This document shows, in pieces, positions 52,291 through 52,998 of a stretch of 64,000 bases of DNA. This DNA comes from a virus. Positions within the stretch are counted from its first letter, which is position 1; the number at the start of each line of letters is the position of its first letter. The notes under the pieces were generated by a model, which was not told the DNA's origin, searched no databases, and was given only the letters and a program-made list of their open reading frames with translations. The stretch is taken from IMG/VR virus record IMGVR_UViG_3300029258_002856. One strand, 5' to 3'. Made by a program: the position numbers and the translations under genes.

Positions 52291-52824
52291 ATGCAAGACA
52301 AAGAGAAAGACTTCCTCTCGACGGTATCCGAGGCCGGGGACCCTATTGTTGAATCCTCCGAAGAACTCGATAACCCGAGCGTGTTTGCGAAACAAGAGAA
52401 TCCGTTCGTTAAGCCCGGAGAAAAGGGGGGCGGCCCACGCTTGAACTACCGCGCACACTCCCGTGTTTTCACTATCTGGCGCGACTGGGAAACCTGTTCC
52501 CGCTGCAAGGACGAGCTAAAGAGCGGGTCTTTGCAACTTCCCAAGAGCGGGGATTACACTTGTCCTCATGTGCAGAACGGGGAGTTCAAAGAAGTGATGG
52601 ACGAAATTCTCTCTGGTAAATCGTTAATGGACCGACGGGAGTATTTCTATACCGATAGCGGTGCCCGTTGTGTTCATTTAACGTGGCTCACTCCCGACCA
52701 GGAAACAGTAGAGCGCCTCAAGAAAGCCGAAGCGTACAAGGAAGAACACGGGGTTTGGCCTCCCAATCTCAAGAAAGCTTTCGAGGACCCGGTAGAGGCC
52801 AAAAAAAGGGCAGTGGAGAGCTAG
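52291..52824 (+). CDS. Hypothetical protein
   Basis: Abuts the portal stop; CSRC..CPH. Confidence 0.65.
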   Translation: MQDKEKDFLSTVSEAGDPIVESSEELDNPSVFAKQENPFVKPGEKGGGPRLNYRAHSRVFTIWRDWETCSRCKDELKSGSLQLPKSGDYTCPHVQNGEFKEVMDEILSGKSLMDRREYFYTDSGARCVHLTWLTPDQETVERLKKAEAYKEEHGVWPPNLKKAFEDPVEAKKRAVES

Positions 52825-52844
52825 CGCTAAGCCTCTCCACTACC
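52801..52844 (-). terminator. Intrinsic terminator of the minus-strand small transcript
   Basis: Minus strand GGTAGTGGAGAG-loop-CTCTCCACTGCC (12 bp, one G-U valid on minus) followed by C and T7. Confidence 0.8.
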
Positions 52845-52876
52845 AGGACTCGCCGAAGGAGGTCAGCGTAACGGCG

Positions 52877-52918
52877 CTACAAGAACGCCAGCAGCACGAC
52901 GAATGGTCTGATTACCAT
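52877..52918 (-). CDS. 13 aa hydrophobic micro-peptide MVIRPFVVLLAFL
   Basis: SD GGGAGGT 9 nt upstream; lies within the small transcript. Confidence 0.4.
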   Translation of the reverse strand: MVIRPFVVLLAFL

Positions 52919-52940
52919 TGCCGCGGCACCTCCCTCGGAT

Positions 52941-52958
52941 TTACAGTCCGAATTCCAT
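52941..52958 (-). CDS. 5 aa upstream micro-ORF MEFGL
   Basis: SD AAAGGAGG 5 nt upstream; the SD is sequestered in the 5'-3' stem. Confidence 0.3.
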   Translation of the reverse strand: MEFGL

Positions 52959-52989
52959 ATGGGCCTCCTTTCGTCCGAGTCCTTGCATT

Positions 52990-52998
52990 CTTATACCA
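52990..52998 (-). promoter_or_regulatory. Extended -10 promoter TGGTATAAG
   Basis: TG-N-TATAAG; predicted start at 52984/52983 coincides with the first base of the long-range stem. Confidence 0.55.

Follow-up and report, generated by a model that had tools for sequence, protein, structure and literature searches.

This study examined a window of 64,000 nucleotides (nt; the whole stretch of DNA analysed) from the IMG/VR virus record IMGVR_UViG_3300029258_002856, a complete viral genome of 179 kb. Within this window, a gap of 235 nt (52825-53059) separates two plus-strand genes, and the minus strand of the gap carries a conserved micro-gene, previously unannotated, which is real as judged from its recurrence in related phages. 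The best explanation of this locus, held here with a probability of roughly 0.6, is an autonomous micro-protein gene, i.e., a cassette of promoter, Shine-Dalgarno (SD) sequence, open reading frame (ORF), and terminator, placed between two plus-strand late operons, namely, one with the portal gene and a gene of 177 amino acids (aa), and one for the virion-type RNA polymerase (RNAP). For this cassette we infer an expression class, a role of the encoded peptide in trans, and a translational gate confined to one sublineage. The conserved ORF is referred to as ORF2, and the shorter ORF upstream of it as ORF1, with SD2 and SD1 as their respective SD sequences.

The original prediction, made from the sequence of the window, described a self-contained minus-strand transcript of about 185 nt starting at 52984, with an extended -10 promoter, two SD-led micro-ORFs, pairing between the 5' and 3' ends, and a single anti-SD for either SD; a type I toxin-like module, an attenuation module, or a 6S-like RNAP decoy was proposed. 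The promoter core, the SDs, ORF1, ORF2, the hairpin, the anti-SD, and the terminator with its U7 run are all present at their minus-strand positions (Table 1), and a purine occupies 52984, where relatives show a conserved R-T-R. The self-contained unit from promoter to terminator stands, with core, SD2, ORF2, and terminator recurring in 40 distinct relatives. The expected conservation in related phages holds for the promoter, ORF2, and the terminator, but not for ORF1, the 5'-3' helix, or the anti-SD.

ORF2 is a conserved coding frame

Relatives were gathered via the RNAP protein, which yielded 3 loci, followed by 80 metagenome loci and 79 viral loci (designated by L numbers). These loci share descent, so that counts are not fully independent, and distinct sequences and non-overlapping pairs were used. 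The ORF2 family comprises peptides of 9-20 aa that share a 9-residue core of the pattern M-x-I-x-x-Φ-x-Φ-Φ (Φ, hydrophobic residue), followed by a variable hydrophobic tail, with a mean hydrophobic fraction of 0.78. It occurs behind the promoter core and a strong SD in 57 of the 60 loci with at least 57% RNAP identity, and two further loci, at about 50%, show the same; in L098, the 58th locus, position 3 is Val. The family amounts to 40 distinct nucleotide sequences and 36 distinct peptides, and an SD lies 4-16 nt ahead of the start codon in 38 of the 40. Such an ORF appeared in 1.5% of shuffled segments and on none of the 40 opposite strands, although the 40 segments were picked for carrying the ORF, and the fair figure is therefore the 57 of 60 clade loci.

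The SD-led frame is open across relatives and shows an excess of synonymous change, with proportions of synonymous (pS) and non-synonymous (pN) differences of 0.53 and 0.13, respectively (ratio 0.25; 14 pairs; binomial p = 9e-15), and the four closest pairs differ by 15 synonymous and 0 non-synonymous changes. The Ile of codon 3 is variously encoded by ATC, ATA, or ATT, and the Arg of codon 4 by AGA, CGA, CGT, CGG, or AGG, i.e., by both Arg codon families. On this pattern of substitution, ORF2 is a real coding frame under purifying selection at the peptide level. The other predicted micro-ORF fared differently: ORF1 is not conserved and is missing from most relatives. Recoding of the stop codon to lengthen ORF2 is unlikely, because the family uses all three stop codons. 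ORF2 was also considered as the decayed N-terminus of the long divergent ORF that relatives at about 50% identity carry, and this was rejected, as the N-termini are unrelated and ORF2 is under selection. No paralogous micro-genes were found elsewhere in the genome, and the unit is single-copy.

The same pattern of substitution bears on the proposal that the transcript itself is the product, i.e., a non-coding RNA such as a 6S-like RNAP decoy or a regulatory small RNA (sRNA), with incidental small ORFs. The length of the predicted unit (about 185 nt), its stable predicted fold, and its position next to the RNAP genes would fit such an RNA, but the substitutions follow the codon pattern of a protein, transcript length ranges from 86 to 184 nt in the family with no shared fold, relatives do not keep the long-range helix, and Rfam gave no match at the gathering score or at E <= 1. 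6S RNA is a conserved rod with a central bubble that resembles an open promoter; no such conserved fold was found here, the folds differ among relatives, and the conserved part evolves as a protein. The decoy proposal was accordingly dropped, and a non-coding product in general is regarded as extremely improbable.

In other relatives, different ORFs occupy the equivalent position. Behind the same promoter, L129, L137, and L145 (36-39% RNAP identity) carry ORFs of 27-34 aa (MIEIFKVAIELILWG..., MLDLLKVAFEAILEG..., MLELPEIAIQILLKI...), which may be longer homologues of the micro-peptide (cf. MIIELLWEFFK...). In L105 (60% identity), the slot of the micro-ORF is instead filled by an ORF of about 54 aa with a signal-peptide-like N-terminus. 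In L033, L054, and L077 (31-36% identity), the minus-strand TGGTATAAG core is followed by about 150-190 nt without a convincing ORF, ending in a strong hairpin and U-run, after which comes a CxxC-rich gene with its own SD; a small RNA may occupy the equivalent position in these loci.

A conserved non-canonical promoter of the micro-gene

In a four-way alignment, the intergenic DNA of relatives is unalignable save for one block, which reads CTTATACCA on the plus strand and TGGTATAAG on the minus strand. Sixty-nine distinct related sequences have the core GGTAnAAG 5' of the RNAP gene, with a T at -1 in 50 of the 69 sites, A-A at -18/-17, and R-T-R at +11 to +13. As read from these conserved columns, core, A-A, and R-T-R are together laid out like a bipartite promoter that starts transcription at a pyrimidine-purine step. 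The promoter points in the minus direction, because relatives at 43-53% RNAP identity have an SD and a long minus-strand ORF 44-137 nt after the core. A reading of the core as a plus-strand RNAP promoter was rejected, since its spacing to the plus-strand -10 ranges from 12 to 31 nt among subclades, and it is further countered by the long minus-strand ORFs that the core drives in distant relatives.

The extended -10 element of sigma-70 promoters is TGnTATAAT, with A at -11, T at -7, and TG one base upstream. Compared with this, the core has the A at its second position, but its final G is invariant (69/69) where the T of -7 is expected, so that it is not a canonical sigma-70 -10, and the upstream T is limited to the 50 sites given above. 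The extended -10 of the original prediction is thus retained as a conserved promoter-like element and not as a sigma-70 one: by its conservation and position, T-GGTAnAAG works like a -10-type element of a non-canonical kind. GGTAnAAG is about 3-fold enriched in the intergenic DNA of the genome (7 of 33 matches vs. 7.2% of bases), where its sites precede UDG-family, class II ribonucleotide reductase (RNR), and small unknown genes, not virion genes. This distribution suggests that the micro-gene promoter belongs to the non-virion (early or middle) class of the phage, and it is possibly read with a phage-encoded sigma factor; the sigma-70-family protein of Table 1 is a candidate for the reader of one of the two promoter classes of the phage.

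Three further GGTAnAAG cores on the minus strand (22231-22238, 19310-19317, and 34858-34865) are possible internal promoters of the same class. They are located within genes of that strand, at the 3' end, and the next gene in the same direction (class II RNR, a 160-aa gene) begins 39-65 nt downstream of them.

The divergent RNAP operon has a sigma-70-like promoter, both hexamers of which are kept in L003, L008, L012, L019, L028, and L111, and the RNAP gene in the window and in close relatives combines this promoter, TTTACG-18-TATACT, with a GGAGG SD. The RNAP gene of relatives at about 50% identity (L014, L015, L029, L045) has no SD, and its ATG follows a TATTAT box by 7 nt, an arrangement suggestive of a leaderless mRNA. 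The micro-gene and RNAP-operon promoters stand back to back and overlap, with the minus-strand upstream element inside the plus-strand spacer (53012-53029), and competition between the two is accordingly a live option, as an alternative or in addition. This is one of two forms of a cis-acting explanation, in which the transcription or translation of the mini-cistron would matter rather than its product: holoenzyme bound at the micro-gene promoter would occlude the RNAP-operon promoter. Against promoter occlusion, the layout of the plus-strand promoter differs among subclades while the micro-gene stays.

The terminator and probable antisense read-through

On the minus strand, the hairpin is directly followed by a U-run, as expected of an intrinsic terminator, and it overlaps the stop codon of the convergent 177-aa gene. 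By a simple heuristic and inspection, a minus-strand hairpin with a U-run stands at the end of the unit in nearly all of the 40 distinct relatives, with unrelated stem sequences, an exception being L111, where the U-run is on the plus strand. The terminator would keep the micro-gene transcript from running antisense into the portal operon. In the window, the plus strand has no U-run past the hairpin, and for this reason late transcripts of the portal operon probably extend across the micro-gene in antisense; such read-through would supply a full-length antisense RNA to it.

The second form of the cis-acting explanation concerns this terminator, in that a nascent-peptide or ribosome-position effect on it would tune antisense read-through into the portal operon. 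About half of the relatives have no more than 12 nt between stop codon and terminator stem, so that a terminating ribosome would touch the stem, and only the first 9 residues are conserved while the tail varies in length, as in arrest peptides; M-x-I-x-x-Φ-x-Φ-Φ is reminiscent of ErmCL (MGIFSIFVI...). Short regulatory leader peptides are known from the attenuators of erm, cat, and amino-acid operons, and the ORF2 family resembles them in length (9-20 codons), in its strong SD, in a hydrophobic sequence whose N-terminal core is conserved, and in having a terminator a short way downstream. Unlike these leaders, it has no downstream gene to regulate, as only the antisense of the 177-aa and portal genes lies past the terminator; the distance from stop to terminator varies from about 0 to more than 40 nt (32 nt here), which leaves no common attenuator geometry; and no conserved alternative, mutually exclusive terminator/antiterminator hairpins were found among relatives. 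The attenuation module of the original prediction was therefore abandoned, and a cis-acting unit of either form is considered unlikely.

A proposed lineage-specific RNA gate

The features around ORF1 are of narrower distribution. In the window, the minimum free energy (MFE) fold (-81.4 kcal/mol, z = -3.97) includes the 5'-3' helix, and the duplex between the 5' end and the 3' untranslated region (UTR) has -28.5 kcal/mol (z = -3.6), a value reached by 2 of 1000 dinucleotide shuffles; folding energy alone cannot pick the strand, because the plus strand also folds stably (z = -5.25). Across 40 distinct loci, the duplex between SD and 3' UTR is no better than in shuffles (mean z = -0.15, p = 0.45; 3 loci below -1.64), and a family-wide sequestration of the SD by the 3' UTR was rejected. 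The predicted 5'-3' pairing is thus upheld for the window but not as a family feature.

A single close relative, L111 (75% RNAP identity), has counterparts of ORF1, the 5'-3' helix, and the anti-SD. Its anti-SD, CACCUCCUUC, occupies the equivalent place and is able to pair with SD1 (z = -2.1) or, as the MFE fold has it, with SD2, and its ORF1 encodes MDVLRL (6 codons), which is unrelated in sequence to MEFGL. The start-codon hairpin is common to the window, L003 (AUGGU/ACCGU), and L111, and is limited to this subclade; in L111 it is changed on both sides, from AUGGU/ACCAU to GUGGU/ACCAC. A single anti-SD that can serve either SD therefore holds for the window and L111, most relatives having none, and the two-state switch, a plausible feature of a sublineage of two or three sequences on these folding models, is not a property of the family.

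A different arrangement is found in the group of L091, L100, and L098, in which the stop of an unrelated, variable ORF1 of 9-12 codons overlaps the GUG start of ORF2 by GTGA, with ORF1 varying freely and the coupled ORF2 (MII/VELLWEFF...) well conserved. ORF1 as a conserved peptide product was rejected, its sequence being unconserved and the ORF mostly absent among relatives. As the sequence is not conserved, ORF1 is best read as a translational-coupling leader, which probably acts by being translated.

In hok/mok/sok, a leader ORF is coupled to the main ORF, and 5'-3' pairing makes the full-length mRNA inert. The window and L111 resemble this system in having an upstream leader ORF, an occluded main start, and a 3' element complementary to the 5' end with its SD. 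By analogy with it, and on the predicted fold, we infer hok/mok-like translational gating in this sublineage, in which the ORF2 AUG would be locked in its hairpin, translation of the leader ORF1 would be needed to open the ORF2 start, and, once the 3' UTR is transcribed, the anti-SD would shut SD1 through a 17-bp 5'-3' helix. With SD1 closed in the completed transcript, the finished mRNA would be largely silent. Unlike in hok/mok, ORF1 does not overlap ORF2 here (the two are 22 nt apart), no Sok-type antisense RNA was found in the genome, there is no sign of 3' processing, and the design is absent from most of the family.

Possible roles of the peptide

With the micro-gene read as an autonomous gene for a micro-protein, the 13-aa peptide would act in trans, either inserted at the membrane interface or bound in a hydrophobic groove on a protein of the host or the phage; this role of the ORF2 peptide is a guess. 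Several points weigh against the overall explanation. Peptides of 9-13 residues are too short to span a bilayer, and selection on the peptide sequence is equally expected of a cis-acting nascent peptide. The G at the '-7' of T-GGTAnAAG is atypical for sigma-70. Lastly, the case for the RNA gate comes from two sequences, the window and L111, and from thermodynamic prediction, and the gate is missing from most of the family.

Known type I toxins are small hydrophobic proteins of about 18-60 aa that act on the membrane. In a type I toxin-antitoxin-like reading of the locus, ORF2 would be an Ibs-like hydrophobic toxin, silenced by the folding of its mRNA and by antisense read-through from the portal operon, with no dedicated sRNA. 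By its product, the closest analogue is Ibs of the Ibs/Sib type I loci, of which IbsA is a hydrophobic toxin of 19 aa (bioRxiv 10.1101/2025.05.26.656083). Like Ibs/Sib, the micro-gene is a small transcription unit of its own for a strongly hydrophobic peptide of very few residues, and those family members that reach 19-20 aa, with RK or RR as a basic C-terminus, match Ibs in size and composition. The leader ORF, sequestered start codon, and 5'-3' pairing of the window and L111 add to the likeness, as does the lack of a plus-strand terminator between the portal operon and the micro-gene, and it fits that intramolecular structure initially keeps type I mRNAs from being translated (PMC11228461).

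According to PMC2887945, a type I system requires a gene for an RNA antitoxin, either a cis antisense RNA or a trans sRNA, that base-pairs with the toxin mRNA. No dedicated gene of this kind was found, neither in cis (52801-52990, which has no antisense promoter, no plus-strand promoter-like site, and no plus-strand T-GGTAnAAG core) nor in trans, as no complementary stretch of at least 14 nt exists elsewhere in the genome and only chance-level 12-13-mers do; operon read-through is the possible source left. The search for a plus-strand antisense RNA, suggested along with the type I proposal, thus came out empty for genes in cis with their own promoter and for genes in trans; of the toxin-like module, the hok/mok-like layout in the window and L111 survives, but its defining half, the antisense RNA gene, is missing. 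In contrast to Ibs/Sib, the micro-gene is single-copy, phage-encoded, and fixed in position beside the RNAP operon, and most family members (9-16 aa; 13 aa here) are below the size of any known type I toxin, with only the longest reaching Ibs size. SD sequestration, moreover, is not a family feature. A type I system is therefore judged improbable.

A narrower form of action in trans, in which the ORF2 product would be a free peptide with a 9-residue core that mimics a short linear motif, was considered with the beta-clamp-binding motif as candidate; such a peptide would plug the peptide-binding groove of a host protein during takeover. The bacterial clamp-binding motif is QL[S/D]LF, e.g., QLGLF in Pol II and QLNLF in UmuC (PMC3716654). 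Residues 5-9 of one subfamily (NLGLF, NLGLV, HLNLL, YLNLF) and of another (YIELF, YIELV, YIDLL) resemble it in a hydrophobic-polar-hydrophobic-hydrophobic pattern that is often C-terminal. Unlike the clamp motif, every family member lacks the highly conserved Gln at the motif's first position, and about 12 of the 36 peptides fit only Φ-[GNSDE]-Φ-Φ at residues 6-9; the window peptide (PFVVL) fits poorly, and any hydrophobic peptide fits part of the pattern. The clamp likeness, drawn from these sequence matches, is only a lead, and the motif-mimic form as a whole is given very little credence.

Significance

Genes of 9-13 codons are invisible to the usual gene callers and small-ORF surveys, because these stop at 15 codons or more; the survey 'Cryptic bacterial microproteome', for instance, covers 15-70 codons (PMC11188072). 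The micro-gene resembles the phage small proteins and intergenic smORFs described in PMC11323111 and PMC11188072 in being a short, unannotated, lineage-restricted phage coding gene recognised by conservation, and differs from them in that most members have 9-13 codons, under the 15-codon floor given there (PMC11188072), and in that it has its own promoter and terminator. The family belongs to a clade of phages of about 180 kb that are uncultured and carry an RNAP, and it provides a comparative-genomics example of a stand-alone gene close to the lower limit of gene size, with its own promoter and terminator and with selection at the peptide level. A non-canonical promoter class of these phages, T-GGTAnAAG, is defined along with its direction, and in one sublineage a hok/mok-like RNA gating would be layered onto the micro-gene. 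If the peptide turns out to be an effector, it would be directly synthesisable and testable, and if it were a motif mimic, the micro-gene would be among the smallest stand-alone effector genes known in any virus.

Genomic setting and further observations

The 177-aa gene is the last of the portal operon and convergent to the micro-gene, with its final 8 codons within the micro-gene terminator, and the 578-aa gene that precedes it is the positional counterpart of the annotated portal of Salmonella phage Arash. The closest isolates, at about 36% RNAP identity, are Arash and Vibrio phages D181/D148/D69; no DNA similarity to isolated phages was found. Purified Arash virions contain RNAP subunits and a sigma factor (PMC10585845). 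Inspection of Arash revealed neither the gap nor the micro-gene between the portal-side genes and the RNAP gene.

Table 1. Positions in the window of the micro-gene elements and of the neighbouring or related genes.
Feature	Position	Strand	Basis or remark
Upstream promoter element C-n-A-A, weakly conserved	53014-53017	-	Column conservation in 69 sites; putative part of the promoter
Promoter core TGGTATAAG (family consensus T-GGTAnAAG), directed away from the RNAP gene	52990-52998	-	Invariant in four-way alignment, flanks unalignable
Predicted transcription start region, G-C-A here (R-T-R in relatives), start at about 52984	52984-52986	-	Conserved pyrimidine-purine step 5-6 nt past the core
5' arm of long-range helix, including SD1 AAAGGAGG (52971-52964)	52964-52983	-	Pairs with 52863-52845 in MFE fold; lineage-specific
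ORF1, leader mini-ORF MEFGL and stop	52941-52958	-	Present here; sequence not conserved
SD2 GGGAGGU	52928-52934	-	SD 4-16 nt before the start in 38 of 40
Hairpin over ORF2 start codon (AAUGGU / ACCAUU), 6 bp	52902-52919	-	In MFE fold; AUG unpaired probability 0.0
ORF2 MVIRPFVVLLAFL and TAG, 13 codons	52877-52918	-	Family conservation
Anti-SD ACCUCCUUC and CGAGUCCU, 3' arm of 5'-3' helix	52845-52863	-	MFE fold, duplex shuffles
Intrinsic terminator: hairpin of about 13 bp (52844-52808) and U7 (52807-52801)	52801-52844	-	Hairpin -22.9 kcal/mol
177-aa gene	52291-52824	+	ORF list; synteny with portal and RNAP genes in relatives and in phage Arash
RNAP-operon promoter, sigma-70-like, TTTACG-18-TATACT	53006-53035	+	Consensus scan
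RNAP fused beta/beta'-N subunit, bacterial-type, 1450 aa	53060-57412	+	
Sigma-70-family protein, phage-encoded	43276-44319	+	Regions 2 and 4; weak double-zinc-ribbon match between regions 1.2 and 2

No tRNAs were found in the window. Between the two RNAP genes, the plus-strand gene at 57413-58909 encodes a LigD-type primase-polymerase with a 3'-phosphoesterase and without a ligase domain. The RNAP beta/beta'-N protein is longer in several relatives (L002:3001-8418, L003:3001-9891, and also L010, L019, L021, L028, and L030), with 1805-2296 aa vs. 1450 aa here; in alignment, the extra length consists of one or two large insertions with conserved endonuclease-like blocks, which are probably inteins.

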